Shown here: positions 1 to 16,138 of the stretch, in pieces
Numbering within the stretch: position 1 is the first letter of the stretch
Layout of the letters: each line of letters starts with the position of its first letter
From: a virus
DNA: 64,000 nt
Strand: one strand, 5' to 3'
Virus record (IMG/VR): IMGVR_UViG_3300025168_000001
Notes under the pieces: generated by a model
Seen by the model: only the letters and a program-made list of their open reading frames with translations
Database searches by the model: none
What the model was told of the DNA's origin: nothing
Made by a program: the position numbers and the translations under genes

Positions 1-621
1 GACCATAGTAGTCAGTATCAAGACATGATTAGACGTATCTGCATACGGATATGCAATTGTTTAAGAGAAACTAGTCACTAGACGACACAACACCACTCAT
101 ACCATCTTACTTGTTGTTCATTATCCAGCCAAATTCAATCACTCTAACTAGTTATTGCACATTAAATCAAATTTAAGTTCGATTGTGTGCACTTGGTCTC
201 AAAGACCCTATTTACGACATTATGTATCTCTTTCCCTGAGACACTGATTGATATAATATAGCACAATGATTGCAGATTCGAGTCTATGAATTGTCACCTA
301 CTCACCACTTTGATGGATGATTGGACATGAAATACACAGTAATAATCTGACGGATACACCTAAACTTAGGTCACTGTCCATCATTGGTGCTATGTTATGT
401 CATATGTTTTATAACAATAACTCAGTGGTGTTTTGAGCAGTCCACTGGATATAGACAAGCTCCAGATAGTACAGTGTGTGCACGTGTAACACGCTATGCT
501 AGTCTGTAACATAGATTAGGCATCGTAATCCATCCAAATAGGTGGGTGCGTATAAGTCCTTTTCTTTTATCTAGAGTACTATTAACCTTATTTATAAATA
601 AACCAATTAAACAAACCAATC
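1..621 (+). ncRNA. candidate structured non-coding region (5' end may lie outside the window)
   Basis: No ORF >=60 aa on either strand in the supplied track. G+C is higher than in flanking genes (52/120 in 421-540). Helices: 45-49/54-58; 195-199/203-207; long-range 317-327/375-385 with a 1-nt bulge and one G-U; 423-428/442-447; 499-505/513-519 with one G-U. The G-U pairs only work on the + strand. Function and ends unknown. Confidence 0.25.
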
Positions 622-1194
622 ATGGCAAATTTACAAACAGTGGCGACTGACGCAAAATTATTATTAGTTAACATCAGATTATCATCTAAACCAGATGCAA
701 CTCTTGTTGATGACAAAGACGGTATCAATGGTAAGCTAAACCAGACTTCAGACGGTCGAAACTACTACATTGCAACATTCAGAGATCCATCTAATCCATT
801 TGGAGTAGAAAGAACTAGAGTGATTGCACAAACTACTGACTCATCAGATAATCCTGTATGGAAAAGTGGTAACCCTTCAATGATTAAGAACTTCGTAGGT
901 AAACAAATACCTGGAGACATAGTTACTAGACAAGTACCATCTTATATGGTAGGTGATAGAACTGTTGACTCTTGTTCTTTAGTTATACTTAAGAATGAGT
1001 CTATAACTTCTGTATTCAAATCTAATGGTCACGACCTAGATGGACAAGAAGATTTATCAGACTTAGGTAATCTTGACCTAGATACAGGTGAGATTATGGG
1101 TGATGAAGGTGATGTAACAGGTGGAACTACACGTAATGAACAAATGAACGATGTAGAGACTGCTGTGGAAGAGAGTCCTGAGGAATTAGGATAA
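622..1194 (+). CDS. hypothetical early protein with acidic C-terminal tail
   Basis: 190-aa ATG ORF. The last ~55 residues are D/E-rich (DLDGQEDLSDLGNLDLDTGEIMGDEGD...EESPEELG). No catalytic motif recognised. Confidence 0.6.
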   Translation: MANLQTVATDAKLLLVNIRLSSKPDATLVDDKDGINGKLNQTSDGRNYYIATFRDPSNPFGVERTRVIAQTTDSSDNPVWKSGNPSMIKNFVGKQIPGDIVTRQVPSYMVGDRTVDSCSLVILKNESITSVFKSNGHDLDGQEDLSDLGNLDLDTGEIMGDEGDVTGGTTRNEQMNDVETAVEESPEELG

Positions 1195-1203
1195 TAACTT
1201 AAT

Positions 1204-1248
1204 GTGATGATGGGTGTATGTAAAAGTACACTCATCACCACTTTGTTT
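1204..1248 (+). terminator. possible intrinsic terminator (bulged hairpin plus T-rich tail)
   Basis: GTGATGA (1204-1210) pairs with TCATCAC (1232-1238) and GTGTA (1214-1218) with TACAC (1227-1231), with a 3-nt bulge. Followed by CACTTTGTTT. Confidence 0.3.
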
Positions 1249-1285
1249 AACAACTTATATTAACAATTAAAACAATATCACATTT

Positions 1286-1486
1286 ATGTTTAAAACCAAG
1301 GAATTAATCGATTTAACATTCTTCAAAAGGCTAAGACTAGCACTTAATTTAGAATGGACAAAAGGAGCTTTCGGCTTCGGAGTAGTACTAGATGGTACAC
1401 TCAAGAACTTTGCAATACATGTAATTATACTTAAATTTGCAGTTAGCGTACATGCTAAGTGGTTAGAAGACTGTAAAACATGTTAA
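1286..1486 (+). CDS. hypothetical small protein (66 aa)
   Basis: ATG ORF with an A-rich leader (ATTAAAAC). No motif; short, so coding status is uncertain. Confidence 0.35.
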   Translation: MFKTKELIDLTFFKRLRLALNLEWTKGAFGFGVVLDGTLKNFAIHVIILKFAVSVHAKWLEDCKTC

Positions 1487-1586
1487 AATATAGCGAGTAT
1501 CGTGGACCAGCGCTCACAGTAAATGGTATTGACTACCGTTTACTTGGGTATTGCTGTTCTTCTAATAAATATGAATACATTATTAT

Positions 1587-1871
1587 ATGAAAAGAAATAA
1601 GATCTTTATTAAAAGCATCATTAGTCTGATAATGTCTATATTCTTCGGAATTGCAACTGTCATACTATTAGTAATGCTAATATATGCACTAGTTACAGCT
1701 GGTGTATATGATGAAGCCCAAACATTGGGCAGAGTAGCTCTCATGGGTATGGGAGTAGCAATATCATTTATTATATCTGTATCTTTCGTAAGATATAGCG
1801 AGAAATTACAGCGATCATTTGACTATGGGGCGTACAAACGACTCAGAAACAAAGCAACCTGGCAGAAATAA
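1587..1871 (+). CDS. small membrane protein (two predicted TM helices)
   Basis: 94 aa. Hydrophobic stretches IISLIMSIFFGIATVILLVMLIYALV and VALMGMGVAISFIISVSFV, with a basic C-terminus. Confidence 0.55.
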   Translation: MKRNKIFIKSIISLIMSIFFGIATVILLVMLIYALVTAGVYDEAQTLGRVALMGMGVAISFIISVSFVRYSEKLQRSFDYGAYKRLRNKATWQK

Positions 1872-2643
1872 TACAATCAATAAACTCGTCATAGCGAGTA
1901 TAAATAGACTTTAGGCTATGAGCGTCAAGGTGTTACAACCTTGGGTAGTGGGCTTGGCCCGATAAGTACAGCAATGTACCTAATGACAATTACTGCACGC
2001 ATGAACAGTAATTGTTGCCATTATTTATAATGGTCAAACCAAGCAAGCAGGATACTACACGGCACCAATGGACGAATGTCTGAGGGTATGTGTATCTCTT
2101 CTTTTAGTTGGAGGGATGAGCTAGCGATAGCAATAGGAAATAACTGTAGATTTAGTTCTGAGTTAACTGTCAAGTTAATAAAGAGTATAAGTCAGTATGA
2201 TGGGCAATCTTAGGGAATAAGATATAACCTGAAATACTATAACGATGAAAAGTTGTACCTAGGATGTATTGTATTTTGTCTTTCAAAAGAAGACGAAGCA
2301 ATTGTGGACCAACCACATCCTGGAAAGTAAATGCATAACAATAACTAAAAGAACAAGTGTTGGCCTGTTACTCCCGAAAGGTGACTAAATCTCTGCTTGA
2401 CAGAGAGTGGATGATTCCTCAAGATGATTCTGTTTGCGAGTAAAAGACTGATATAGAGTTTAGCGGCTTTATATTACGTTCGAGTAATTCGTGAGTAAGT
2501 AGTAACATTAGAAGTGGTTAGTCTAACTAACCGTCACTGCACATTACTATTGGAGACAATAGTGGATATGTTGTTAACCTTAAGGAGGAACTAAACAACT
2601 AAAGATGTGTGTATAATGGTGTAATCTCAGCCCATTATATTTT
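1872..2643 (+). ncRNA. candidate large structured non-coding RNA (~770 nt)
   Basis: No ORF >=60 aa on either strand. G+C is locally ~50% (31/60 in 1921-1980). Helices: 1889-1895/1915-1921 and 1926-1930/1939-1943. Four-way junction 1952-2044: closing helix 1952-1957/2039-2044 and hairpins 1966-1979, 1986-2015 (perfect 10 bp) and 2018-2033. Helix 2096-2101/2110-2115 needs U-G wobbles, so it is + strand only. GCGA-loop hairpin 2120-2131; 2516-2521/2527-2532; GAGA-loop hairpin 2546-2563. Terminal hairpin 2613-2620/2632-2639 is followed by TTTT. Confidence 0.4.
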
Positions 2644-2648
2644 AAACT

Positions 2649-2768
2649 ATGAATAAAGTTAAACTTATTCGAAGACTTAGATGGGAGCTTGCACAACGTA
2701 AGCGTACAATCCTATTACACAGAGTAGTCATCTGTATTCTTATCTTAATCCTAGTATTCATTTACTAG
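2649..2768 (+). CDS. possible 39-aa tail-anchored membrane peptide
   Basis: ATG 2649 to TAG 2766-2768: MNKVKLIRRLRWELAQRKRTILLHRVVICILILILVFIY (basic N-half, hydrophobic C-half). Below the ORF-track size cut-off. Confidence 0.3.
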   Translation: MNKVKLIRRLRWELAQRKRTILLHRVVICILILILVFIY

Positions 2769-2805
2769 GGTTAAGAGTATTTATTAACTTAATTAAACAA
2801 TTACT

Positions 2806-3342
2806 ATGGGGAAAACCAGGTACAACCATGACGCAAACTCTCTTGGAGAGTCAGTTGGATTCGATAGAGACCAACAAAAAGAGATCATTAAATGTTTTAA
2901 TGACTCGTTAAATGAATTCGATGAAGATGAAGCTGCTAAATCAGCAATATTAGAAAGAACTATTACTTTAGCTATACAACGAGGGTTACTTAAAGATCAT
3001 GAAGACTTTTTCTTTGCTGCATTCTTTTTGTCTGAGTTTATAACAAGAAGACTAGTAGAAAGTGATAATGATGAAGAAGGGCCTAGAGTTGCGAAAACTT
3101 TGAAAGCTATTGCAAGTCAATTTGCTAAGCAGATGAGAAAGAGAGGTATAGAGTTAGATGATTTACCTTTAGATGATATGATAAATGAAGTTAAAGGTGA
3201 CATGGAAGATTTTGATAGTGGAAACACAGCAGATCTACGGGACCCTGATGACCTTTCTAAACTCATGTCAATGGATACTGGTGACATAATAAACAAAAAG
3301 AAACTAGTAGCACATATGGAATCAGATACAAATGACTTTTAA
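2806..3342 (+). CDS. hypothetical acidic early protein
   Basis: 178-aa ATG ORF, D/E-rich, no recognised motif. Confidence 0.6.
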   Translation: MGKTRYNHDANSLGESVGFDRDQQKEIIKCFNDSLNEFDEDEAAKSAILERTITLAIQRGLLKDHEDFFFAAFFLSEFITRRLVESDNDEEGPRVAKTLKAIASQFAKQMRKRGIELDDLPLDDMINEVKGDMEDFDSGNTADLRDPDDLSKLMSMDTGDIINKKKLVAHMESDTNDF

Positions 3343-3402
3343 ATAAGTTTTAACTATATAGTTATACAATTATTTGTATATTTATAACTTTAAATATTAG
3401 AT

Positions 3403-3855
3403 ATGGCAAACAAATCAATCAGTAAGACCCAGGGAATTAGCAAAATACTCAAAAACAGTAACAGTGTTCTAAAAGAATTAGAAACTGCTGATAAGTATAG
3501 CGAACAACTGGACAGTCTTGCACGTCTATCACTTGAACAGGAAGACGTTAAAATAGATGTTCAAATTTATGTTAAGGTAACACCTAAACACACAGAAGAA
3601 AGCAATGTAGCAGGGCCTGGAGACTTACTTAAAGCTTTAAAGAACTCTAAAAACCCTGAAGACTTTGTTGATGCACTTAGTAATATAGATGAATCTATAC
3701 ATGACCACAAAGATGGTCATAGTGATCCAAAATATTATGAAGCTAACCTTGACAATGTAGATAACTCTACCTTTCTATGTGTTGTTGATAAACTACTTCA
3801 ACATTACAAATCACGCAGTACTAATTTATTAACCAAATTAAAATCTTTACTATGA
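3403..3855 (+). CDS. hypothetical early protein
   Basis: 150-aa ATG ORF. Its stop overlaps the next start (ATGA), suggesting translational coupling. Confidence 0.6.
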   Translation: MANKSISKTQGISKILKNSNSVLKELETADKYSEQLDSLARLSLEQEDVKIDVQIYVKVTPKHTEESNVAGPGDLLKALKNSKNPEDFVDALSNIDESIHDHKDGHSDPKYYEANLDNVDNSTFLCVVDKLLQHYKSRSTNLLTKLKSLL

Positions 3856-4217
3856 CACTATTAATTATCCTTGGGAGTTTATGTCTTATTATTTTTCTAA
3901 TGTTTTACATTGGATATTCAAAAGAGAACAATGAGCTACAAGACAACATGAAAAAGCATACAGCAAATCATGACAAACTTGATGAAGTATTATCAAAAGC
4001 GGATGAACTAGCAGCTACATTAGCGGCACATAAAGTTAATCCTACTACTCTGAGCACAAGGGCAGAGAAATGTATTAAAGGTCTACACATAGTTTATGTG
4101 CACGATCTGGAAGCAGTTACAGTACGTAAATTAGAGGCTGTAAAAGGAGTTGGACAAAAAACTATAGATGAAATAGACTTTTGGGCAGCAACAAATTATG
4201 ACATCACAATCAGATAA
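3852..4217 (+). CDS. membrane-anchored protein with helix-hairpin-helix-like C-terminus
   Basis: N-terminal TM helix (LLIILGSLCLIIFLMFYIGY). C-terminal LEAVKGVGQKTIDEI resembles the HhH G-h-G motif. Confidence 0.55.
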   Translation: MTLLIILGSLCLIIFLMFYIGYSKENNELQDNMKKHTANHDKLDEVLSKADELAATLAAHKVNPTTLSTRAEKCIKGLHIVYVHDLEAVTVRKLEAVKGVGQKTIDEIDFWAATNYDITIR

Positions 4218-4263
4218 CAATTCCCTTGGATAGGTTATCTAACGATAACTTGTGTGATTGTTC

Positions 4264-4303
4264 GCTTATGACGGGGCTTCGGCCTTGTTATAAGCTTTTT
4301 TTT
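4264..4303 (+). terminator. intrinsic terminator
   Basis: 14-bp stem 4264-4277/4282-4295 (three G-U pairs, + strand only), UUCG loop 4278-4281, then T8 (4296-4303). It ends 4 nt before the tmRNA 5' end. Confidence 0.75.
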
Positions 4304-4307
4304 ATAC

Positions 4308-4703
4308 GGGGGTGACATGGCTTTGACATTCTGATGGAAGTATAAATGGCAAGCAACGATGCTTTTTAACTGGCGAAAATAGTTATTCTAAAGTCGCTAA
4401 GTTCTTCCCTAGAGGGAATGGATTTATCGCTAGTGCTCTACCACTACAAAGTGTAGAACTTGCAGTAGCTGCTTAGGTAGTTATTTCGAAAGTGTTTTTT
4501 GGTAATTTGTCACTTAATACAAAGATGGCCTAATTAGCTCTAGGAGCTTCAGGTCTGTTTCGCTTGACTAAGCGAAATACCGTAGTAAAGAGAGCACGTA
4601 AGTAATGTGTAACTCTAGAAAAATATAGTCAATTACTTAAAAGCTTGTACATCTATTTATGTGGATACAGTATGGACGTGGGTTCGAAACCCACCACCTC
4701 CAC
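4308..4703 (+). ncRNA. ssrA: tmRNA (transfer-messenger RNA)
   Basis: Acceptor stem GGGGGUG (4308-4314) pairs with CACCUCC (4695-4701), including a G3:U70 wobble. T-arm GUGGG-UUCGAAA-CCCAC (4678-4694); discriminator A4702. The 5' GGCUUUGACA resembles the conserved tmRNA box. P2-like helix 4340-4349/4653-4662. Tag ORF 4372-4473 plus TAG 4474-4476 encodes GENSYSKVAKFFPRGNGFIASALPLQSVELAVAA. Confidence 0.9.
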
Positions 4704-4731
4704 TTTTTATTAACTATTTAAAACTATTATT

Positions 4732-5295
4732 ATGGGATTTGATCTACACGGGGTGGCACCTAAAATTAACCAGCCAGAGCCTAAGATTTTAAAAGACAAT
4801 CATTGGTCTACTGTTACTCCAGATCTTAGAGAAGCTTATACGATTGCTTGGGATGAACATGAAAAAGTTAATCCTGGTATATATTTTAGAAACAATGCAT
4901 GGTGGTGGAGACCACTATGGACATATGTATGTAATATATGTCATGATATATTAACTCAAAAAGATATGGTTAAAGGTACTTGGAATAACTTTGATACTAT
5001 ATCTAAAACTAAAGGTATTAAGATAGCTGCACGTATAATGAAAGAGAATAAGAGTGGTGCTCTTGATAAGTATGCTCAAGGGTATGAAGAAGCTATTGCT
5101 AAACTAGATAAAGAAGATTGTATGCATTGTAACGGCACAGGTAAACGTGATGATGAACATGTAAAAGGAAAATGTAATGGTTGCGAAGGAACAGGTAAAC
5201 GTGAGGCATGGGCTGCATCATATCCTTTTAGTGTGGAAAATGCGTTACAGTTTGCAAAGTTTGCAAAAGAATCGGGTGGATTTCAAATATCTTAA
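4732..5295 (+). CDS. protein with DnaJ-type CxxCxGxG zinc-finger repeats
   Basis: 187 aa. Contains CMHCNGTGKRDDEHVKGKCNGCEGTGKRE, i.e. two CxxCxGxG units as in the DnaJ cysteine-rich domain. No J-domain HPD motif seen. Confidence 0.65.
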   Translation: MGFDLHGVAPKINQPEPKILKDNHWSTVTPDLREAYTIAWDEHEKVNPGIYFRNNAWWWRPLWTYVCNICHDILTQKDMVKGTWNNFDTISKTKGIKIAARIMKENKSGALDKYAQGYEEAIAKLDKEDCMHCNGTGKRDDEHVKGKCNGCEGTGKREAWAASYPFSVENALQFAKFAKESGGFQIS

Positions 5296-5310
5296 TTAAA
5301 ATTGATTATT

Positions 5311-5754
5311 ATGAACAAAATTTATGACGAGACGCAAAGCATTAATAAATTATTTAGAATAGTTACTAATGTATTCGGCATTTCAAAGCAAGAGATGATA
5401 TCTAGAACTAGAAAGAGAGCGTATGTAGAATCTAAAACTATGTTTGCTGTTATTGCTAGAGAAAAATTATTATTAAGTACAGTAGAAGTAGGTGATCTTT
5501 TAAATAGAGATCATAGTTCTATTATACATTATAGCAGGACACACAAAGATCTATATAAAGTAGACAAGACTTATAGAAGAATGTTTGATCTTATAAGTAA
5601 TACCTTTACTGATAAACCATTTATGGCTGATAAATTATTAACTGTAGATGACAAATTAAGTATAGCGCATATTAAAATTGATACTTTACAAGTAGAAAAT
5701 GAACAATTACGTGATGCAATGACTCTTATAAAAGAGGCAGTACTTACGTATTAA
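5311..5754 (+). CDS. stand-alone DnaA domain IV-like helix-turn-helix protein
   Basis: SRTRKRAYVESKTMFAVIAREKLLLSTVEVGDLLNRDHSSIIHYSRTH follows the DnaA C-terminal DNA-binding pattern (R.R..v.aRqiamYl.re....s...IG..f..rDHstV.ha). The track start at 5302 is TTG; the first ATG is 5311. Confidence 0.6.
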   Translation: MNKIYDETQSINKLFRIVTNVFGISKQEMISRTRKRAYVESKTMFAVIAREKLLLSTVEVGDLLNRDHSSIIHYSRTHKDLYKVDKTYRRMFDLISNTFTDKPFMADKLLTVDDKLSIAHIKIDTLQVENEQLRDAMTLIKEAVLTY

Positions 5755-5763
5755 TGTAACTGA

Positions 5764-5838
5764 AAGGACCCCAAAGCAATACCTGTTCATTGACTGAATG
5801 ATCCAGTCTCAATGGCTAACAACGCTAAGCGGGTCCTT
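5764..5838 (+). ncRNA. candidate small structured RNA A (75 nt)
   Basis: Perfect 8-bp closing helix 5764-5771/5831-5838 encloses hairpins 5787-5791/5797-5801 and 5803-5805/5813-5815. No canonical tRNA loops. Confidence 0.2.
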
Positions 5839-5850
5839 AAACTAAAAGAA

Positions 5851-5964
5851 GAGAGATGAGCACACAGTAGTTAAATCCTATGCCAAGGGTTACTACACAT
5901 AGATAACATGCTAAAGAGGGTTTTCCTCGTTATCGGTCTGGTTCGACTCATCTCTCAACTTTTT
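5851..5964 (+). ncRNA. candidate small structured RNA B (four-way junction, ~106 nt, plus T-tract)
   Basis: Perfect 10-bp closing helix 5851-5860/5947-5956. Arm 1: 5867-5871/5892-5896 stacked on 5874-5879/5886-5891. Arm 2: 5902-5907/5929-5934 with inner 5916-5919/5925-5928. Arm 3: 5936-5938/5945-5947 carrying a GGUUCGA T-loop-like sequence. T5 at 5960-5964. Confidence 0.35.
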
Positions 5965-5998
5965 CTTATTAAATTATTTATTAACTAAACTATATAAC

Positions 5999-6520
5999 AT
6001 GGTAACTAACGAGGTGGCTAAGTTTAAACTTAGAGTATTAAAACATGTATCTAACGTAGTAAAGGGTGGAGTAGAATTACCTCCTGTTATGTATGTTAGA
6101 ACAAGTAAAGGCAAATTTAAAATTATGCCTGTAGCTCCACAATTAATGGCAGAAAAAGAACTACGAGATAAATGTAGAGAAATTATGCAACACATGCTAA
6201 CTTTAGCGAAGGCTGATCTTGTGTGTTTTGTATCAGAAGCGTATGTTTCATCTATTCGTAGAGATGAGATGAGCCCAGAAGAACTAAGAAGGGCAGAAGC
6301 AGGGCGCCCAAGTAGAGAAGATTACAAAAAGGCAACTAAGAATCGTACAGAATGTATATTTTTGAGCTTTGAAACTAAGGGATTACCGAGAGAAAATGAG
6401 CTTATGACTTTCAAAGTTGAAAACAAATCATTACAACCTCATCATTTGATGTCAGAAATGGAGAATTCTGGTGTAGTAGGAAACGCACAAGGTAATTTTC
6501 AAAATCTATTTGAACAATGA
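5999..6520 (+). CDS. hypothetical protein
   Basis: 173-aa ATG ORF. Its stop overlaps the polymerase start (ATGA). No motif recognised. Confidence 0.6.
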   Translation: MVTNEVAKFKLRVLKHVSNVVKGGVELPPVMYVRTSKGKFKIMPVAPQLMAEKELRDKCREIMQHMLTLAKADLVCFVSEAYVSSIRRDEMSPEELRRAEAGRPSREDYKKATKNRTECIFLSFETKGLPRENELMTFKVENKSLQPHHLMSEMENSGVVGNAQGNFQNLFEQ

Positions 6521-8367
6521 TAAATTATATAGGACCCGAAAGAAATATTCCTTCGGAACATTATAAAGTAGCAACTATTGAAGATGCGGTTAGCTACTGT
6601 AAAGACAAAAAGTATCTAGGTGTAGATACTGAAACAGAAGGATTAGACTTCCAAACAAAGAGAATGCTAATGCTTCAAATAGGAGACGATAACGAACAAT
6701 TTGTTATTGACACAAGACACGTAAGTATTGAACCTTTACGTGACATTTTAGAATCAAACTCTATAATAAAGATTCTACATAATGTCAAATTTGATTATAA
6801 AGTTATTAAAAGGTGGGGTAATATTACTATGAATGGATGTTGGGATACTATGTTAGTGGACCAAATTATTCATTGTGGTAAATTTACTTTACGATATTCT
6901 TTAAAGGAGCTTTGTAAGCGCTACCTACAGGTAGACTTAAACAAAGACGTTAGAAACCAATTCGTTGGTTTAGAAGGCGAACCCTTTAAAGACGATCAAA
7001 TAGTATATGGTGCTAAAGATGTAGAGTATCTATGTTTTATAAGGAATGCTCAAGAGCAAACACTCATAAAACATAAATTAGAAGACGTTGCAGAGTTAGA
7101 AAACACTGCAAGTTTAGCTTTAGCAGACATAGAATTTAATGGCTTTAAATTGGATACAGAACAATGGAGTAATATAGCGAAGGATTCCAAAGACGAAATG
7201 ATTAAGTATGAAGACACATTAGATCAATTAGTTATGGCAGATCCAAGGTTATCTAGTTTTGTTAATCCAAATGTACAGACACAATTATTTACAGCAACAG
7301 AAGATATTAGAAAAATTATGGTTAAATGGTCTAGTCCTACACAAGTATTAAGAGTATTCAAAATTTTAGTACCTGATTTAGAAAATGTAAATGGAAAAGA
7401 ACTGATAAATTATAGAACTCACGGATTAATAAATAACTATGTAAAGTATAAAGAGAAAGCAAAGCTTGCTACTTCATATGGTATAGAATTCTTAAAGAAT
7501 ATTGGAGCAGATGGTAAGATTCATACTAGATTTAATCAAGTATTAAATACTGGTAGAATTGCTAGTAACTCTCCAAATATGCAGCAGATACCTGCAGACA
7601 ATAAGTTTAGACATTGTTTTATACCTGATGAAAATCAAGTACTAGTATCTGCCGATTATAGTTCTCAGGAATTATGTATTATAGCGACAGGATCTAAGGA
7701 CCCTGTTTGGTTAAAAATTCTAGAAGAAGGCGGTGACTTACACAGTGAGTGCGCAGATCTAGTATTTCAAGACAAATGGAGAGAAGCTGATGAAAAAGGT
7801 AAGAAAAAGTTGCGTACTAACGTAAAAACCATTAACTTTGGCCTCGCTTATGGCATGGGTCCATTTAAATTAGCAAACACTTTACAGATAAGTACAGAAG
7901 AAGCACAGATACTAATAGATAAATATTTTAGTGTATTCCCCTCAATTAAAAAGTTTCTAAATAGTCTAGGAAATTACGGAAAACGATACGGTCACATTAA
8001 AACCTTTGCGCCTTTCAGAAGGATCAGATGGTTTGAAGATTGGTTCCCTGGTATGGGATTCAGTTCAGGAGACATGAAGGTGTTAGGTTCAATTGAACGT
8101 GCATCTAAAAATACTCCTATTCAAGGTACAGGTGCTGACATGACTAAACTTGCATTGGCTTTCTTACGAAAGAGAATACAAGATGACAACTTACCAGTTA
8201 AGTTAGTTATGACAGTACATGATCAAATTGATACAATGTGTCCAACAGATTACTCCACAGAATGGTCAGAAATTTTAAGTTACGAAATGGAAAGAGCTGC
8301 AGAGCTTATTTTAAATAATAAGTTATTGAAAGCTGAACCTAGTATTAATTCAAAATGGGAAAAATGA
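6517..8367 (+). CDS. polA: family A DNA polymerase with 3'-5' exonuclease domain
   Basis: Exonuclease motifs: GVDTETEGL (ExoI), ILHNVKFDY (ExoII), YGAKDVEYL (ExoIII). Polymerase motifs: VSADYSSQELCI (A), RTNVKTINFGLAYGMG (B), MTVHDQID (C). Confidence 0.92.
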   Translation: MINYIGPERNIPSEHYKVATIEDAVSYCKDKKYLGVDTETEGLDFQTKRMLMLQIGDDNEQFVIDTRHVSIEPLRDILESNSIIKILHNVKFDYKVIKRWGNITMNGCWDTMLVDQIIHCGKFTLRYSLKELCKRYLQVDLNKDVRNQFVGLEGEPFKDDQIVYGAKDVEYLCFIRNAQEQTLIKHKLEDVAELENTASLALADIEFNGFKLDTEQWSNIAKDSKDEMIKYEDTLDQLVMADPRLSSFVNPNVQTQLFTATEDIRKIMVKWSSPTQVLRVFKILVPDLENVNGKELINYRTHGLINNYVKYKEKAKLATSYGIEFLKNIGADGKIHTRFNQVLNTGRIASNSPNMQQIPADNKFRHCFIPDENQVLVSADYSSQELCIIATGSKDPVWLKILEEGGDLHSECADLVFQDKWREADEKGKKKLRTNVKTINFGLAYGMGPFKLANTLQISTEEAQILIDKYFSVFPSIKKFLNSLGNYGKRYGHIKTFAPFRRIRWFEDWFPGMGFSSGDMKVLGSIERASKNTPIQGTGADMTKLALAFLRKRIQDDNLPVKLVMTVHDQIDTMCPTDYSTEWSEILSYEMERAAELILNNKLLKAEPSINSKWEK

Positions 8368-9563
8368 TTCAAACAGATTTATTTAACGAACAAAAAGATG
8401 AACTTCAATTAGAACATCTAGATGCTTGGGTCTCGAATGGTTACAAAGGTACTTCTATTGCTGCTACTGGTCTTGGTAAAACTAGGATTGGTATTTTAGC
8501 AATTAAAAATACTTTAGGAAAAGATTCTAACAAGTCGGCATGTGTAATTGTGCCTACTGAGAATCTTAGAGACAATGAATGGGTTAAAGAATTCCATACT
8601 TGGAATTTAGAACATTTATTACCACAAGTAGAATTCATGTGTATACAATCTGCATATAAACTTGCAGGACATCATTGGGATATCGTTGTTGTAGACGAGG
8701 TACACACTACCTTATCTACATCATATAGAAATTTCTATGAAAATAATCTTTGGGAAAGGATGTATTGCTTCACAGCAACGCCTCCTGAAAACGAAGAGTA
8801 TTTTAATTATTTACATGAACACGCCCCTATTATTAAAACAACCAATTTAAATGAGGCGAGAAAACTGGGGATTGTGTCCCCTTATACAGTGTATAATTTA
8901 GGTGTTAGTTTTACACCTGAAGAAGCACTAGAATATAATAGAGTAGATAAGCTTCTTCAAGATTGTACAGATGAACTCGGTGGACCTTTTAATGCATTTA
9001 AAAATGCAAGTAAATTTATGAAATCGAGTAATCATCCTAAGAAGAAGATATCTATTATATATTATAAGATGATGAATAAAAGGAAACAAATGTGTTTTAA
9101 TGCATTTAGTAAATTAGTATTAGTTAAGAAATTAACTGATAAGTTTCCTAATAGGAAAACATTAATCTTTAGCGAAAGCATAGAGTTTGCTGAGCAAATT
9201 CAAACAGTAATTGGATCTGATTGTTCCGTATTTCATAGTAAAATGCATAAGAACGATCGTAAAGATACTCTTGAAAAGTTTGGAGAAGAGAAAGGTGTTA
9301 GAATATTAAGTTCCGTTAAAGCGTTAAATGCAGGTCTTAATGTGCCAGATTGTTCTTTAGGAATATGTGTTGCTGGCAGTTCAAAAGCCCTAGACAGTAT
9401 TCAAAGAACAGGTCGTACATTAAGATTAAAAAATGGCAAGAAAGCAATTTATGTGAACTTATACATCAAAGGAACACAAGAACTAAAATGGGTTAGAAAG
9501 AGAGTAAAAAGTGATTACACAGTGAAATGGATAGATGATATAAGCGAAATTATTAATTTATAA
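8355..9563 (+). CDS. superfamily 2 DEAD/DEAH-box helicase
   Basis: AATGLGKT (Walker A), VVVDEVH (motif II), FTATP (III), QRTGRTLR (VI). Confidence 0.85.
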   Translation: MGKMIQTDLFNEQKDELQLEHLDAWVSNGYKGTSIAATGLGKTRIGILAIKNTLGKDSNKSACVIVPTENLRDNEWVKEFHTWNLEHLLPQVEFMCIQSAYKLAGHHWDIVVVDEVHTTLSTSYRNFYENNLWERMYCFTATPPENEEYFNYLHEHAPIIKTTNLNEARKLGIVSPYTVYNLGVSFTPEEALEYNRVDKLLQDCTDELGGPFNAFKNASKFMKSSNHPKKKISIIYYKMMNKRKQMCFNAFSKLVLVKKLTDKFPNRKTLIFSESIEFAEQIQTVIGSDCSVFHSKMHKNDRKDTLEKFGEEKGVRILSSVKALNAGLNVPDCSLGICVAGSSKALDSIQRTGRTLRLKNGKKAIYVNLYIKGTQELKWVRKRVKSDYTVKWIDDISEIINL

Positions 9564-9576
9564 ATATATTATTTTT

Positions 9577-10218
9577 ATGATTGCAATTGGCAAACCATTT
9601 ATAGATATACTGATAGAAAACCAGCTAACACTGGAAGAGTATACAGTTATCTATTGTGTTGTTTATGATAAAAAAGATTTAATTAAATCTTATAGTCGTA
9701 ACGTTAACACAATTAATTCTGAAGCGGTTAAGAATCTTCAAGACAGAGGATTCATAACTATGACGGAAGGAAAATGGGCAGCTACAGATAAAAGTGATGT
9801 GTTTATACGAGATCTAGTAGATAGTTATTCAAATCAGAAATCAGATAACCCTTTCTTAGGAGATGAAGATTTAGTAGACTTGGCGGATAGTATATATGGT
9901 AAAGAGTTTGATGACTTTTTATCTTCATATCCGACCAAGGCTATTAGGCCTAGTGGGAGGACAGATTATTTAAAAGAAGGTACCAAAGAGATAAAGAAAA
10001 TGTATCTCAGTATTATTCAGGGAAATAGATGTTCACCTCAACGACTACAAAAAGCTGTTGAATTCTATGTCAACAGGCAAAAACGAAATGGTATGAACTA
10101 TATTAAGACACTAAAGAATTGGCTTAAACAAGAAATTTGGAAAGACACTCTTAATATATTAGATACTGAAAGTAATGAACCAAATAAAAATATCAATTAT
10201 GGCGGTAAAATCAGCTAG
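9577..10218 (+). CDS. possible replication organiser / helicase-loader-like protein
   Basis: N-terminal wHTH-like segment (NLQDRGFITMTEG). The C-terminal pattern YPTKAIRPSG...AVEFYVNRQKRNGMNYIKTLKNWLKQEIWKD recalls DnaD/replisome-organiser C-termini. Its position just upstream of the DnaB-like helicase fits this. Confidence 0.35.
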   Translation: MIAIGKPFIDILIENQLTLEEYTVIYCVVYDKKDLIKSYSRNVNTINSEAVKNLQDRGFITMTEGKWAATDKSDVFIRDLVDSYSNQKSDNPFLGDEDLVDLADSIYGKEFDDFLSSYPTKAIRPSGRTDYLKEGTKEIKKMYLSIIQGNRCSPQRLQKAVEFYVNRQKRNGMNYIKTLKNWLKQEIWKDTLNILDTESNEPNKNINYGGKIS

Positions 10219-11197
10219 AAGCTTAAAGTATAAACATATAAAGACGGCCAGTGATGAAATTATACAGTATATCGATGATAGAAGGAAAGGACTCATACGT
10301 TCGCTTAGAACAAGATGGGCTAAATTAAACAATTCAATTACAGGAGGTTTGGAATGGGGAACAATAGTTACTGTGGCAGGTATGTCTGGCTCAGGTAAAT
10401 CCTCAATTGCAAATGAAATGGAAACGAGTTTGTTTGATTTTAACCCTAATGAAAACTTTTCAATATTATCATTTAATTTCGAAATGCTAGCAATGAAGCA
10501 GGTAGGAAGAAAAATTTCTTCTAAATTAAACTTGACTTCGTCTGAACTATATTCAGGTAGCGACTCATTAAAAGATTTAGATTTCGAAAGATCTAGATTT
10601 GTAGTAGAAGATACGATAAAAGATTATGACGTATATTATGTAGATATTCCAGGATCAGTACAGCAAATTTATAGCACTATAAAAAGATTTCACACAAATG
10701 AAAAGAGAAAGAAAGGAGATGATTACGGAACAGTAGTGTTTCTTGATCATACATTATTAACGAGAGGAGGTAAAGGAGCATCAGAGAGGGAGATTTTAGT
10801 TAATTTATATAAGATGTTTATGCTTATAAAAAAAGAATTTAAGATTGTTGTAGTAGTTTTAAGTCAATTGAATCGAGATTTAGAAAGACCTGAAAGACTA
10901 TCAAACCCTATGACACATTATCCTATGAAAAAAGACATATTTGGATCAGATGCAGTTTTTCATGGGTCAGATATAGTTATGATTAGCCATAAACCTTTTA
11001 TGCTTCATCTACAAACTTATGGGCCTAATAATTTACCTGTTACAAATCCTTTGGATAGTGACCAGGCAATGATATATTGGCATATAATAAAAAACCGTGA
11101 GGGAGAATCAGGAGTAGTATTAAGTATGCTTGATAATCTTAAACACAGTAAAGTAGACGAATATGAAAAACCAAGTGAAATAAACTTTAATTTATAG
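10175..11197 (+). CDS. DnaB-like replicative helicase (RecA-fold domain)
   Basis: AGMSGSGKSS (Walker A), VVFLDHTLL (Walker B), VVVLSQLNRDLERPER and IIKNREGESG match DnaB-family motifs. An alternative in-frame ATG at 10199 would shorten the overlap with the upstream gene. Confidence 0.85.
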   Translation: MNQIKISIMAVKSARSLKYKHIKTASDEIIQYIDDRRKGLIRSLRTRWAKLNNSITGGLEWGTIVTVAGMSGSGKSSIANEMETSLFDFNPNENFSILSFNFEMLAMKQVGRKISSKLNLTSSELYSGSDSLKDLDFERSRFVVEDTIKDYDVYYVDIPGSVQQIYSTIKRFHTNEKRKKGDDYGTVVFLDHTLLTRGGKGASEREILVNLYKMFMLIKKEFKIVVVVLSQLNRDLERPERLSNPMTHYPMKKDIFGSDAVFHGSDIVMISHKPFMLHLQTYGPNNLPVTNPLDSDQAMIYWHIIKNREGESGVVLSMLDNLKHSKVDEYEKPSEINFNL

Positions 11198-11199
11198 AT

Positions 11200-11463
11200 A
11201 TGACAGCAAAGATAATAAAAACAGATGGTGCAGAAGAATTGTTTGTTCTGCCCTCAAAAAATCAACTCAAGATTATGCAAAAAGCAGTAGGAGGGTTGAT
11301 TGAAGTAGTACCGTCAACACAAGAGGGACTTAGTGTTGTCTGTAACGAAGAAGGTAAAATACAGGGCTTACCTATTAATTATAAAGCCACTGTTTTACAT
11401 AGATTTTCAGCAGATCCCTTATGCGGGGACGTAATAATTATACAAACCGATAAATTAATTTAA
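11200..11463 (+). CDS. hypothetical small protein (possibly DUF3846-like)
   Basis: 87 aa. The pattern GGLIEVV...VVCNEEGKIQGLPINYKAT...GDVIII recalls DUF3846, but this is from memory only. Confidence 0.3.
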   Translation: MTAKIIKTDGAEELFVLPSKNQLKIMQKAVGGLIEVVPSTQEGLSVVCNEEGKIQGLPINYKATVLHRFSADPLCGDVIIIQTDKLI

Positions 11464-12147
11464 ATGGCACAAGAAATTTTAATCATTGGAGAATCGGGTT
11501 CTGGTAAATCAACTAGTTTTGAGCACTTAGACCCTAAATCAACTTTTATAGTTAATGTTGGTAAAAAACCAATGCCCTTCAGAGGGTGGAAAAAAAACTA
11601 TACAACTCTTTCAAAAGAGAATCCTAGAGGTAATTACTTAGAATCAGATAATCATTCTGTAATTGTATCTACATTAAAGCATATAGATGAACATATGTCA
11701 CACATAAAAACAGTTATTATAGATGACTTTCAATATGTTATGGCAAATGAGTATATGCGTAGAGCAAACGAACGAGGCTTTGATAAGTTCACCGATATAG
11801 GATTACACGCTTGGGAGATAGCAACAGCTGGTAAAGATTTAAGAGAAGATATTACATTTATTATGGTAGGACATGCAGAAACTGCAACTGACCTACAAGG
11901 TAATAGAAAGCTTAAATTTAAAACAGTAGGTAAATTAGTAGATAATATCATTACTATGGAAGGGATGTTTACAATTGTGTTATTCACAGATGTAAGTCCT
12001 GATGCTGAAGGTAACATAAAACATTCATTCTTAACTCAATCTGATGGTACAACTACTGGTAAGAGCCCTAGAGGAATGTTTAATGAAAGTAAAATACCTA
12101 ATGATATTAACACAGTTATTCAAGAAGTTAACAAGTATTATAATTAA
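11464..12147 (+). CDS. Sak4-like / AAA_24-type RecA-fold ATPase
   Basis: N-terminal IIGESGSGKST (Walker A) and TVIIDDFQ (Walker B). Its ~227 aa size and position next to an SSB-like gene are typical of phage Sak4-type recombination ATPases. Confidence 0.6.
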   Translation: MAQEILIIGESGSGKSTSFEHLDPKSTFIVNVGKKPMPFRGWKKNYTTLSKENPRGNYLESDNHSVIVSTLKHIDEHMSHIKTVIIDDFQYVMANEYMRRANERGFDKFTDIGLHAWEIATAGKDLREDITFIMVGHAETATDLQGNRKLKFKTVGKLVDNIITMEGMFTIVLFTDVSPDAEGNIKHSFLTQSDGTTTGKSPRGMFNESKIPNDINTVIQEVNKYYN

Positions 12148-12158
12148 AAACCAATTTT

Positions 12159-12821
12159 ATGAGATTAGTAGGAAAAAGAGTCGAAAGACTAAATCGTTAT
12201 GGCGATGACCTATGTATCGAATTACAAGAATCTGGTAGAATGCGTATAAGCCCTGCTTTGCAGTCTAGGATGAATCTTCGTCCTGACAACAACAAAGTAG
12301 GCTTTGCATATCCAGAAGAAGGTGATACGGAACAGGTCGTTAATATTTATGTAGCACCCGATGGAAATGGGGTTGCAGTAAATAACCAAGGAGTATTAAG
12401 TAATACACCACACAACCGTGATCTAAGATCACATTATGAAGAGTCAAGTTTAGAGAATGTCAAATTATTTGTAGCAGAACAGTCTACAGAAATGGACGGA
12501 TTTCCTGGATATAGATTTTTCAAAATTAAGTCACAAAGTATGTTAAATACAGCAACAGATGATTACTCTAAAGCTGTAAATACATTAGAAGAAGCCCCTG
12601 TAAATATGGAAACTTTTGTATCTTCGCAAACAGATGAAGATATAATTGAACATGCTACAGAAACAGAAAGTTCAAACCCTGCAGTTGAAGAAGAGGTCTT
12701 TGGGACTGATTACGTAACTTCAACAAAAAGTAACATAGAAAAGAACTTTCAAGAAGATGCTATTCAAGACATGCAAAACCAACAAGAAGAAGAATCATTA
12801 GATTCTTTGGACATATTTTAA
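12159..12821 (+). CDS. hypothetical protein with acidic C-terminal tail ending in DIF
   Basis: 220 aa. C-terminus NQQEEESLDSLDIF. No catalytic motif. Confidence 0.6.
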   Translation: MRLVGKRVERLNRYGDDLCIELQESGRMRISPALQSRMNLRPDNNKVGFAYPEEGDTEQVVNIYVAPDGNGVAVNNQGVLSNTPHNRDLRSHYEESSLENVKLFVAEQSTEMDGFPGYRFFKIKSQSMLNTATDDYSKAVNTLEEAPVNMETFVSSQTDEDIIEHATETESSNPAVEEEVFGTDYVTSTKSNIEKNFQEDAIQDMQNQQEEESLDSLDIF

Positions 12822-12856
12822 ATCAATTAAATTAATAATAACAAAAAAAAAGAACT

Positions 12857-13429
12857 ATGTATCAAATTAATCAAGCATTAAATGTAAACGAAGTATCAGG
12901 ATCATCACCAATTCCTGTAGGTGTAAATGACAATTGCCTATTTAGCGGTGTAGAAAAGAAGACAGACAAGAATGGAAAGTCTTACTTAAGTTTCAAATTT
13001 ACAGACTCTGACGCTAATGAATTAACTCACAATGAGTTTGACATTAATCCAGATTATGTAACTCCTAAAGAAGGAGAGTCTAAAGAAGACGCTGTTGCTA
13101 GAAGAATAAATAATATGCTTATTAGAATCAAACATATTTGCACACAATTTATTCCAAAAGACCAATTTAGCGTTAGTGGTAATAATTTTGATGAATTATG
13201 TACTAATCTATGTGCGACTATGTCAGCTGCTAATACTCACACACCAGTGAGATTAAAAGTTGTATACGATTACAAAGATTACTCATCTATTCCTAATTAT
13301 GCACCATTTATTGAAGCGATGACTAAAACTCCTAGTGGGTTAAAGATTACAGCTTATGATAAAACTGAAAAGACTTCTCAAGCAGCAACTACTCAAGTAG
13401 TTGGTACTGAAGAAGATCTTCCATTTTAA
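12857..13429 (+). CDS. probable single-stranded DNA-binding protein
   Basis: 190 aa. The C-terminal tip GTEEDLPF resembles the bacterial SSB tip DDDIPF, and the gene sits in the recombination/replication cluster. OB fold not verified. Confidence 0.45.
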   Translation: MYQINQALNVNEVSGSSPIPVGVNDNCLFSGVEKKTDKNGKSYLSFKFTDSDANELTHNEFDINPDYVTPKEGESKEDAVARRINNMLIRIKHICTQFIPKDQFSVSGNNFDELCTNLCATMSAANTHTPVRLKVVYDYKDYSSIPNYAPFIEAMTKTPSGLKITAYDKTEKTSQAATTQVVGTEEDLPF

Positions 13430-13448
13430 TCAATTAAGATAACTTAAT

Positions 13449-13525
13449 ATAAGAGAGATAGTATGCGAACTCTACCTGTGCTAGACAGTTGTAGATTCTA
13501 TTTATTACTATCTCTCTTATTTTTA
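13449..13525 (+). terminator. long hairpin plus T-tract (terminator or small RNA)
   Basis: Perfect 15-bp stem ATAAGAGAGATAGTA (13449-13463) / TACTATCTCTCTTAT (13506-13520) encloses an inner TCTAC/GTAGA helix. Followed by T5. Confidence 0.5.
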
Positions 13526-13527
13526 TT

Positions 13528-14526
13528 ATGTATGATTTAACAAACATCCAGGAACCAGAAAAGTTATCGAAGCAAGCAATATTAGATAGAATAACTGAAG
13601 AAGATATTATGAGACATTACTTGGGATTTGATTTCCAAGTAGGAAGACCTTATAGTAGCCCTTTTAGAGAGGACAAAAATCCCTCTTTTGCATTGTATTA
13701 TACAAAAGACCGAGGATTAAGATTTAAAGATTTCAATGGATTACAAGGAACATGTTTTGATTTAGTAATGAATTTATATGGGTCAACTTTTTTAGAGACC
13801 CTTAACATTATAAATAATGATTTAGATTTACGTATTGGAAAAATAAAGGCAACTAATGTAACACGAAAGATAATTTCGTCTTACAAACCCGAAGTAATAG
13901 AAAGGAAAAAATTAATCCAAATAAAACCTCAGCATTGGACAAAAGTCGATGCTAAATATTGGACTCAGTTTGGAGTAACATCTAAAACTTTAAAAAAGTT
14001 TAATGTATACTCTGCAAAGTTTGTCTTTTTAGACAAACAATTAATTCTGCAGTATATGGAATATAATCCTATATACGCATATAAATTTAACGGTAGAACT
14101 AAAATTTATAGACCTCTAGCAGATAAAACACAATTTAAATGGATGAGTAATGTACAGCATGAAGATTTACAAGGTTTAGAACAGCTTGAATATAAATCTG
14201 ATACTGTAATTATTACAAAATCTTTAAAAGATGTAATGTGTCTATCTGAATTAGGTTACGAAGCGGTTGCTCCGCAATCTGAAAATACAAGAACACAATT
14301 TGACTTACTAAAAGAACTTATACCTAAATACGAAAAGATAATTATATTATACGACAATGATGAAGCAGGAATGCATGGAGCAAAAACTTTAGAAAAGTTT
14401 CTTGATAACGATAAAGTTAAAAATGTTATTATTAAAGATCCTAAAACTAAAGATATAAGTGATTATATACAAACATATGGAATAAACTGCGGACAATTAT
14501 TAATCAAAATGCTTATAGATGAATAA
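13528..14526 (+). CDS. DnaG-like Toprim primase with degenerate zinc-finger box
   Basis: SPFREDKNPSF aligns to the DnaG CPFHxEKTPSF box but lacks the Cys/His ligands. Toprim motifs: VIITKSLKDV and IILYDNDEAG (DxD). Confidence 0.7.
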   Translation: MYDLTNIQEPEKLSKQAILDRITEEDIMRHYLGFDFQVGRPYSSPFREDKNPSFALYYTKDRGLRFKDFNGLQGTCFDLVMNLYGSTFLETLNIINNDLDLRIGKIKATNVTRKIISSYKPEVIERKKLIQIKPQHWTKVDAKYWTQFGVTSKTLKKFNVYSAKFVFLDKQLILQYMEYNPIYAYKFNGRTKIYRPLADKTQFKWMSNVQHEDLQGLEQLEYKSDTVIITKSLKDVMCLSELGYEAVAPQSENTRTQFDLLKELIPKYEKIIILYDNDEAGMHGAKTLEKFLDNDKVKNVIIKDPKTKDISDYIQTYGINCGQLLIKMLIDE

Positions 14527-15100: not shown

Positions 15101-15101
15101 A

Positions 15102-16121: not shown

Positions 16122-16138
16122 AAAACCAATTAAAAAAA

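Follow-up and report, generated by a model that had tools for sequence, protein, structure and literature searches.

GOLLD RNAs are among the largest and most elaborate RNAs of bacteria and phages; they are typically encoded by phages or prophages, and tRNAs are frequent neighbors. Transfer-messenger RNA (tmRNA) acts in translation and is normally matured by RNase P, and for the small Pistol ribozymes, whose Mg2+-dependent self-cleavage leaves 2',3'-cyclic phosphate and 5'-OH ends, we know of no assigned biological role. GOLLD RNAs assemble alone into 14-mer cages, with cryo-electron microscopy reported for env-38, a GOLLD published as lying downstream of tRNA-Met; ribosome binding by GOLLD in pull-downs has also been mentioned (PMC12286853). 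Pistol ribozymes cut at the two-nucleotide GU junction between helices P3 and P2 (PMC4604425). Theta ribozymes, which resemble the hepatitis delta virus (HDV) ribozyme, have their cleavage site beside phage tRNAs and have been proposed as a stand-in for protein enzymes in RNA end formation (PMC10879173). Here we analysed a stretch of 64,000 nucleotides (nt) from the IMG/VR virus record IMGVR_UViG_3300025168_000001 (hereafter the window), whose first 6 kb does hold a cluster of RNA genes, with small genes in between. This island holds a Pistol ribozyme directly upstream of a complete GOLLD RNA, a tmRNA and, at its end, a three-way-junction RNA of a new fold that we call element 4b. Pistol, GOLLD and tmRNA are known families; we have not found their arrangement described, and in the literature searched the one paper that names both GOLLD and pistol draws no link between them. 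The explanation of the island that we favor, at a probability of roughly 75%, is a mosaic in which small genes that are early or linked to replication stand next to independent genes for non-coding RNAs.

The window is part of a 92.6-kb source contig (ENA ERZ27249078 k141_751846, labelled L149); the other L-numbers are labels of fetched loci or contigs that were compared with the window. Eighty related viral contigs were retrieved via the polymerase gene, and relatives found through this adjacent DNA polymerase also carry Pistol, GOLLD and tmRNA. Rfam searches used the 4227 covariance models of Rfam 15 with the gathering scores as family thresholds, and covariation was judged by compensatory pairs in consensus folds versus column shuffles.

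Four blocks of the first 6 kb (1-621, 1872-2643, 4218-4731 and 5755-5998; blocks 1 to 4) contain no open reading frame (ORF) of at least 60 amino acids (aa) on either strand. The longest ORFs inside them are 41-50 aa, and a 73-aa minus-strand ORF at 5974-6195 reaches only 25 nt into the last block. With a greedy gene set, coding density was 57% in 1-6000 versus 98% in 6001-64000, and the remaining 58 kb had just two other gaps of at least 120 nt (155 and 313 nt); the blocks are therefore no chance feature. An earlier interpretation made without database searches (the sequence-only reading) had already singled them out as an island where structured non-coding RNAs alternate with small genes, and both the blocks and the island proved real. 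Its further description of the blocks as GC-rich held relative to the two other spacers (0.364-0.375 versus 0.265-0.284, a difference of about 9-10 points) but only to a small extent relative to the adjacent coding DNA (0.339; whole window 0.332). Its term 'helix-dense' found no thermodynamic backing: minimum free energy z-scores of the blocks ranged from -0.2 to -4.3, while ten coding control windows averaged -2.3. These controls were 250-nt windows from 6600-16600 scored against a dinucleotide-preserving swap shuffle, and their mean reflects either unusually foldable coding DNA or an incompletely mixing shuffle; the z-scores were therefore not used, and thermodynamic evidence for RNA genes was dropped. 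Since folding energy does not discriminate, the case for RNA rests on family matches and covariation.

The Rfam search returned Pistol, GOLLD and tmRNA above their gathering scores and nothing at E<=5 that overlaps blocks 1 and 4. The sequence-only reading had recognised the tmRNA and had missed the two main components, Pistol and GOLLD, both of which score well above threshold. In line with what it reported, neither the window nor the 9.4 kb that precede it on the source contig contained a tRNA (ARAGORN; Rfam, RF00005), and tRNA or tRNA-like genes in the island were rejected on these grounds. The tRNA-shaped four-way junctions that it described in their place could not be found; element 4b is a three-way junction by covariation and its neighbor 4a is a rod-like hairpin. 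Conservation and covariation in related phages did bear out structured RNA, with compensatory changes in 26 of the 55 pairs of the GOLLD 5' domain and 7 of the 33 pairs of 4b.

The Pistol ribozyme of block 2 matched RF02679 with 67.6 bits (gathering score 34.5) over the full model (positions 1-68 of 68), and every upper-case consensus position was matched. Stems P1, P2 and P3 all align, together with a 7-bp pseudoknot between the P1 loop and an internal segment; its strands read UCAUAGC/GCUAUGA in the window and UCUGAGC/GCUUAGA in L003, with compensatory changes between the two. The GU junction between P3 and P2 maps to G1945-U1946 in the Rfam alignment, where the RNA is predicted to cleave itself. 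The element shares with known Pistol ribozymes (RF02679; PMC4604425) the P1-P3 helices, the pseudoknot, the conserved nucleotides, the GU junction and the phage association. It differs from them in its 3' cleavage product, which would be a large, independently folded non-coding RNA with the first helix 4 nt past the cut. Another Pistol of the phage group, at L027:2768-2837 (52 bits), lies between two protein-coding ORFs and not beside an RNA gene. An alignment of L018 to Pistol was spurious, and the idea of Pistol as a general partner of GOLLD was rejected, as the pairing was unseen beyond the window and the L002/L003/L126 lineage.

The conserved 3' domain of GOLLD matched RF02032 with 211.7 bits (gathering score 150) over model positions 1-416 of 416, and the same family was found in L003, L008, L018, L027, L073, L075, L079, L125 and L132. 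Homology of the 5' domain, as detected by nhmmer, begins at window position ~1950 in 10 of 10 loci, with or without Pistol. A consensus fold of this domain from 11 sequences (alifold) comprises the 55 pairs mentioned above; its first helices use the conserved start (GGGCUUGG; GGGCYUGGCCCGAUAA), whose GGGCYUGG is base-paired in the fold. GOLLD in the window is a complete, two-domain RNA of ~684 nt. Because the ribozyme junction falls at G1945/U1946 and the conserved start at ~1950, the predicted cut lies 4 nt ahead of the first paired GOLLD nucleotides. In several sister phages an A/T-rich, -10-like box precedes the same GGGC start by 6-8 nt, which suggests that GOLLD has a promoter of its own there.

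Compared with described GOLLD loci (RF02032; env-38; LR745206), the window has the same above-threshold 3' domain and structured 5' domain in a phage-encoded RNA that shares its strand with its neighbors and has other small RNA genes around. The 635-kb genome of the unrelated, uncultured phage LR745206 has the order tRNA-Met, GOLLD, tRNA-Pro; the upstream slot that tRNA-Met occupies there and in env-38 is taken by Pistol in the window. The window GOLLD has no flanking tRNAs, the tmRNA lies 1.7 kb downstream, and the RNA is shorter than the >800-nt members mentioned in PMC12286853. It is followed by a conserved 39-aa ORF, a small gene just past the end of block 2 that the sequence-only reading had not taken into account. 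This ORF (MNKVKLIRRLRWELAQRKRTILLHRVVICILILILVFIY) starts 16 nt past the Rfam end of GOLLD, has a hydrophobic tail and ends inside a terminator hairpin. Both are conserved in L003, L008 and L075, where the substitutions keep the reading frame and the hydrophobic tail. The ORF may be co-expressed with GOLLD.

From family identities, covariation-supported folds, conserved positions and gene order, all of which are observed, we infer cleavage activity, transcript ends, termination and biological roles as follows. Positions 1286-2776 would form one transcription unit of two or three small ORFs, Pistol, full-length GOLLD, the 39-aa membrane-protein ORF and a terminator. Self-cleavage by Pistol would free GOLLD from the upstream mRNA (ORFs 1286-1871) and give it a defined 5'-OH end. 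At canonical GOLLD loci the 5' end could be set by RNase P/Z acting at a tRNA upstream, and several sister phages apparently use their own promoter; Pistol would do this job here. Ribozyme self-cleavage, not RNase P/Z, thus appears to be the best-supported processing step. Theta ribozymes beside phage tRNAs are the closest precedent (PMC10879173), likewise small self-cleaving ribozymes with the cleavage site beside a phage non-coding RNA. They differ from the window element in class (HDV-like, not Pistol), in the end that is formed (tRNA 3' end, not RNA 5' end) and in cargo (tRNA, not GOLLD). If true, the arrangement would give a Pistol ribozyme a concrete natural job, directly testable and parallel to that of theta ribozymes, and GOLLD an exact mature 5' end. 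With the 5' end fixed to the nucleotide by a self-cleaving ribozyme and a bounding terminator on the other side, a defined native transcript would be at hand for structural and infection studies.

Some features around GOLLD in the relatives recall tRNAs. In L027, T-arm-like hairpins (GCAGGUUCGAUUCCUGC and UAUAGGUUCGAUUCCUAUA; L027:3573-3589 and ~L027:4530-4550) stand on both sides of GOLLD; none was called a tRNA, and they may be tRNA-like processing signals. Upstream of GOLLD in L079 (576-658), L132 (1188-1270) and also L073 there are 83-nt matches to the tmRNA model (~52 bits) that span the tRNA-like domain only, with the tag and pseudoknot region missing; ARAGORN calls neither tRNA nor tmRNA there. 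Within the window, a variable hairpin of the GOLLD 5' domain (2095-2114) is complementary at 18 of 20 positions to 5835-5854, which covers the spacer and first bases of 4b. We judged this probably a chance match, as the L075 counterparts, compared by eye, match only partly.

The tmRNA of block 3 is of the one-piece type. It scored 75.5 bits with RF00023 (gathering score 47), and its homologs in L003, L008 and L075 scored 66.6-75.2 bits. Read from the sequence, the 7-bp acceptor stem is GGGGGUG/CACCUCC and contains the pair G3.U70 (G4310.U4699), the T-arm is GUGGG-UUCGAAA-CCCAC (GUGGGUUCGAAACCCAC) and the discriminator is A4702. The G3.U70 pair is the mark of alanine identity. CCA is not encoded, because the 3' end reads ...CCUCCA-CUU. 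The tag would be GENSYSKVAKFFPRGNGFIASALPLQSVELAVAA followed by a stop codon, 34 codons if read from the conserved GGC; its frame runs from GENSYS to ALPLQSVELAVAA and the stop, with a hydrophobic ...AA degron at the end. An alignment of the four phage tmRNAs contains the invariant stretch CUGGCGAAAAUAGUUAUUCU and a conserved resume region, and the frame stays open to ...ALPLQSVELA(V/L)AA-stop in 4 of 4, even across a 3-nt indel. ARAGORN calls the tmRNA in L008 and L075, with the tag start placed further downstream and tags that end in ...SVELA[LV]AA. Thus the molecule has what bacterial and phage one-piece tmRNAs (RF00023) have, namely a tRNA-like domain with G3.U70 and T-arm, an internal tag ending in ...AVAA and a stop, and a conserved resume region; it differs from them in its long tag, in the lack of an encoded CCA and of a recognisable promoter, and in a divergence beyond ARAGORN detection. 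This alanine-type tmRNA with its long tag ...ELAVAA presumably keeps ribosomes recycling during infection, and it would need host 5' and 3' processing plus CCA addition. From what is generally known of tmRNA maturation, RNase P and 3' trimming are plausible in the island for this RNA only. The GENSY... start appears to resemble Bacteroidota tags of the GENNYALAA type, which would fit a crAss-like phage, and the tag is thus a host clue, possibly to Bacteroidota, for this uncultured phage group.

Element 4b, an RNA of ~110 nt, had no Rfam match in the window at E<=5, and none of the Rfam models matched it in six 4b-bearing viral loci (E<=0.1) or nine metagenomic loci (gathering scores). A second copy was found in L075, 7 nt past the tmRNA 3' end, where three pairs are compensatory. 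When IMG/VR was scanned with two independent patterns, both gave the same eight distinct copies; a metagenome scan added 19. Model R1 aligns 27 copies (18 distinct) from contigs of phages or metagenomes. The fold comprises 33 pairs in four helices that form a three-way junction. In the alignment, pairing holds in 99.3% of cells, with compensatory changes in 7 pairs, a result matched by 0 of 500 shuffles, and slid registers left 39-57% paired. The fold is specific to the coding strand, because G.U accounts for ~11% of the paired cells, one U.G being invariant. The copies are 80-100% identical pairwise (mean 90%) and 72 of 117 columns are invariant, while the DNA polymerases of the carrier phages are only ~50% identical. 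All copies lie on the coding strand, either 2-68 nt past a stop codon (often 2-8 nt) or 7 nt past the tmRNA. At least five upstream contexts occur: a 130-aa gene, the polymerase, a 225-aa protein with an acidic tail, the tmRNA and, in the window, element 4a. A tie to one gene family was accordingly rejected, the neighbors being unrelated and Pfam uninformative. A search for more variants with a second conserved block brought back the true copies already known, along with chance matches in unrelated sequences, model R1 detected no divergent copy in 1.29 Mb of related loci, and none was present among 185,579 cellular species genomes.

Thus, 4b is a well-supported new fold known from phage contigs only. 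Like other orphan structured-RNA motifs from comparative genomics (e.g. PMC5737381), it is small, supported by covariation and drawn from phage or metagenome contigs; unlike them, it is unusually invariant, confined to phage contigs and lacks an Rfam 15 family. A U-rich run begins 0-3 nt past the 10-11-bp P1 in all inspected copies. The insert enclosed by this stem is 86 nt long and branched, a shape outside the model of our terminator scan. We read 4b as an autonomous, terminator-capped RNA module whose invariant loops would bind some partner. The operon at 4732-5754 would then carry two structured modules, 4a and 4b, at its 3' end, and the closing stem and U-run of 4b would most likely terminate transcription to leave a stable, terminator-capped small RNA. 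Its compactness and extreme conservation make 4b a promising candidate for a new RNA-protein or RNA-RNA interaction in its marine carrier phages.

Up to four interchangeable non-coding modules come after 4b in other phages (L085:6350-6670 on the minus strand, also L108, L110, L111, L113, L114, L116, L117 and L119), and their number varies between near-identical marine phages. In these modules a purine-rich strand (UAGGUUGRG...) closes with a pyrimidine-rich strand and a U-run (...CUCUUCCUUUUUUAUUAAC). In most copies, the stem that closes 4b (GAGAGGUGAG/CUCACCUCUC) resembles the Shine-Dalgarno/anti-Shine-Dalgarno duplex GAGGUGA/UCACCUC, maybe by coincidence, and several neighboring modules in other phages end with CACCUCCU-like strands.

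Element 4a begins right past the stop codon of a DnaA_C-like gene. It is 49% identical to its positional counterpart in L003 and shares the same fold of 19 pairs, 7 of them compensatory, a number reached by 4 of 300 shuffles; the consensus energy of -14.1 is far below all shuffles (-1.5 +/- 1.6). These values are suggestive of a structured RNA. A kinship of 4a with the modules that come after 4b elsewhere was rejected, no similarity being found.

The window edge truncates block 1; its full non-coding stretch on the source contig measures 775 nt and starts 154 nt before the window. Its homologs were found only in the L002/L003/L126 lineage. The motif GCCAAATTCAATCACTCTAACTAGTTATTGCACA occurs once in the 64-kb window, again ~200 nt upstream on the source contig, and in a diverged third copy ahead of the preceding 130-aa gene. 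L002 and L126 have three copies, one of which lies ~35 nt ahead of the ATG of a 93-aa ORF in L126. With one copy in the window and two more just upstream, a dispersed genome-wide promoter was rejected; the motif appears to behave like a repeated promoter or operator. The conserved patch downstream stands out from surroundings that are otherwise ~76% identical. Its extended -10 box was read from the sequence; the consensus scan did not list it for want of a good -35 element. The segment 274-382 folds with its L003 counterpart into 31 pairs, 7 of them changed on both sides, where 300 column shuffles gave a mean of 1.13 +/- 1.04 and none reached 7. The consensus energy is -22.2 versus -7.4 +/- 2.7 kcal/mol for shuffles; on the reverse strand the segment has 6 compensatory pairs and a weaker energy of -13.6. 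It is a probable structured leader or small RNA. A coding role for block 1 was rejected, as L003 lacks conserved counterparts of its small ORFs and the lengths of its indels are not divisible by three. The sequence-only reading, which had counted block 1 among the RNA blocks, is not supported for much of it, as this part consists of promoter-like repeats. As a whole, block 1 would be an early regulatory region, in which promoter-like repeats and an extended -10 promoter precede a structured leader before the 190-aa gene.

Table 1. Positions of RNA elements, signals and the conserved small ORF in the first 6 kb of the window.
Feature	Position	Strand	Basis or remark
Repeated promoter- or operator-like motif, ~35 nt, GCCAAATTCAATCACTCTAACTAGTTATTGCACA	128-165	+	copies in source contig and relatives
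Conserved patch with extended -10 box TGaTATAAT (249-257)	216-268	+	53 nt, 100% identical in window, L002 and L003
Candidate structured leader or small RNA	274-382	+	long irregular hairpin 274-350 and hairpin 353-381
Terminator-like hairpin after 190-aa gene	1208-1237	+	terminator consensus scan
Pistol self-cleaving ribozyme	1884-1950	+	Rfam RF02679; predicted cleavage G1945/U1946
GOLLD 5' domain	1950-2258	+	nhmmer homology in 10 related loci
GOLLD conserved 3' domain	2259-2633	+	Rfam RF02032
Conserved 39-aa membrane-type small ORF	2649-2768	+	protein conserved in L003, L008, L075
Terminator-like hairpin closing the Pistol-GOLLD-small ORF unit	2743-2776	+	terminator consensus scan; conserved in L003, L008, L075
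Octamer TTATTAAC	2781-2788; also at 3826, 4707, 5978	+	13-18 nt upstream of start codons
Strong terminator hairpin, 14 bp, UUCG loop, U8	4264-4295	+	scan and sequence; ends 12 nt before tmRNA
One-piece tmRNA	4308-4702	+	Rfam RF00023; tag frame 4372-4476; no encoded 3' CCA
Element 4a, rod-like hairpin closed by AGGACCC/GGGUCCU	5764-5838	+	positional counterpart in L003
Element 4b, three-way-junction RNA, ~110 nt	5848-5963	+	model R1
Parts of 4b	P1 5851-5860/5947-5956; P2 ~5867-5896; P3 5902-5934; conserved J3/1 5935-5946; U-run 5960-5964

Several observations weigh against the mosaic reading and its mechanism. The Pistol match contains two non-canonical pairs, G.G in P2 and G.A in P3, and the direct Pistol-GOLLD junction occurs in the window only, with a 45-nt spacer in the L002/L003/L126 lineage. 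The L027 Pistol lies ~890 nt upstream of GOLLD; because it separates two protein ORFs, it argues for a general transcript-cutting device in these phages that is not specific for GOLLD. No terminator or processing signal marks the 3' end of GOLLD, and the RNA may run into the message of the small ORF. ARAGORN does not call the window tmRNA, whose Rfam alignment across 4480-4640, in the region of pseudoknots PK1-PK4 around the tag, has many non-canonical pairs and low posterior probability, and this RNA has no recognisable promoter and a strong terminator ending 12 nt ahead of its 5' end. Element 4b would have to terminate transcription through a branched structure, the folds of 4a and block 1 rest on two lineages only, and folding z-scores fail to set the blocks apart from coding DNA. 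The stronger proposal that Pistol was recruited as a dedicated 5'-end maturase of GOLLD, replacing tRNA/RNase P punctuation, and that 4b, with the interchangeable stem-plus-U-run modules beside it in sister phages, is a new, phage-only class of RNA that moves between gene contexts and engages a conserved host or phage factor through its invariant loops, is tentative, and we would put it at somewhat less than even odds.

Among the rival explanations, a live though less likely alternative is that 4b is no free-standing small RNA but a conditional terminator or antitermination element, which would control read-through from early into replication genes when its conserved loops are bound by RNA polymerase, a phage protein or a ligand. 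Such a role would suit the position of 4b, always between co-directional genes with the U-run directly past P1 and, in many copies, with the next start codon 14-50 nt away; in the window it stands just before a block of a 173-aa ORF, DNA polymerase, helicase and primase. The downstream genes vary by lineage, however, 15 loci have 100-380 nt of further non-coding modules in between, and no alternative (anti-terminator) pairing was identified.

It is unlikely that ordinary regulatory DNA, and not RNA genes, makes up blocks 1 and 4 and the leaders of blocks 2 and 3. They would then be promoters, operators, terminators or a replication origin beside the replication genes, with hairpins that work at the DNA level or just as terminators. 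The repeated motifs and extended -10 box of block 1 are of this kind, and 4b does end in a stem and U-run, always at gene 3' ends within replication modules. The two-lineage basis of 4a and 274-382 also leaves room for it, as do the nearly as many compensatory pairs on the reverse strand of the latter. Against this stands the invariance of 4b, which extends to loops and junctions in phages with such divergent polymerases and goes far beyond the need of a terminator. Its G.U pairs would be mismatches on the opposite strand, it moves as a unit between unrelated gene contexts, and the Rfam matches settle blocks 2 and 3.

We regard as similarly improbable that Pistol is a switch for mRNA decay or expression that uncouples ORFs 1286-1871, with GOLLD as a giant 5' leader of the 39-aa ORF. 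The closeness of this ORF to GOLLD, its conservation in the four phages of the lineage, the shared terminator, the unmarked GOLLD 3' end and the position of the L027 Pistol between protein ORFs would all fit such a switch. Yet GOLLD is not tied to the 39-aa ORF, because other relatives carry different sequences downstream (a hairpin in L073/L079, a T-arm-like element in L027). In addition, GOLLD RNAs self-assemble into 14-mer cages (PMC12286853), and the predicted cut falls no more than 4 nt from where the conserved, base-paired GOLLD begins. The switch or leader role and the role of Pistol in GOLLD maturation are not mutually exclusive.

Very improbable is the model of the sequence-only reading, in which one co-transcribed precursor is cut by RNase P/Z into tRNA-like RNAs for translation takeover or as defence decoys: a tmRNA normally matured by RNase P is present, GOLLD loci elsewhere are tRNA-flanked (including PMC12286853), relatives have T-arm-like hairpins and tRNA-like-domain matches beside GOLLD, and tmRNA 3' processing in L075 would make the 5' end of the adjacent 4b, but the window is free of tRNA and tRNA-like matches, the blocks are set apart by three canonical terminator-like hairpins, the P1/U-run of 4b and protein genes, a ribozyme and not a tRNA is predicted to form the 5' end of GOLLD, the largest RNA, and the three-way junction of 4b has neither T-arm nor anticodon arm. 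Nothing in the analysis speaks for a decoy role.

Apart from the RNA elements, the octamer TTATTAAC (usually TTTATTAAC) precedes the starts at 2806, 3852, 4732 and 5999; in related phages (L003, L085 and others) it comes after the RNA modules and before start codons, and it may be an early-gene promoter or leader signal. Several of the small genes between the RNA blocks (including 622-1194, 3852-4217, 4732-5295 and 5302-5754) have weak or partial domain matches. Pfam matched an RNA polymerase alpha C-terminal-like domain in one of them (E=1.2e-8) and a DnaA C-terminal helix-turn-helix in another (E=1e-11); a third has a zinc finger of the DnaJ type (CXXCXGXG) that stays below the Pfam cut-off. 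The acidic tail of the 190-aa protein recalls, on a mere impression, phage single-strand DNA-binding proteins. In block 1, ~145 nt (window 446-590) holding further hairpins are missing from L002/L003 through insertion or deletion, and none of the fetched loci contains a homolog of this segment. No similarity was found between the 130-aa genes that precede block 1 here and 4b in other phages. A further ORF-free region of 767 nt lies between divergent genes at L149:8066-8832, 739-1500 nt upstream of window position 1; it had no Rfam or tRNA match and contains a diverged copy of the block 1 motif.

The phage itself is uncultured, marine and distantly crAss-like, with a ~93-kb genome; its setting is taken to be marine because one copy of 4b is on a Tara Oceans scaffold. 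Cultured-phage records had nothing in common with 1-6000 except a 58-nt GOLLD core. By DNA polymerase the closest named phages are crAss-like, at only 27-29% amino-acid identity. The plus strand of the window encodes a family A DNA polymerase, helicases, a primase and ribonucleotide reductase. The 1355-aa member of the giant minus-strand ORFs, the only one of the five searched against PHROG, gave no match. These ORFs of 1355, 4177, 1043, 1888 and 2187 aa follow one another at 23224-55196, a layout like that of crAss-like phages.

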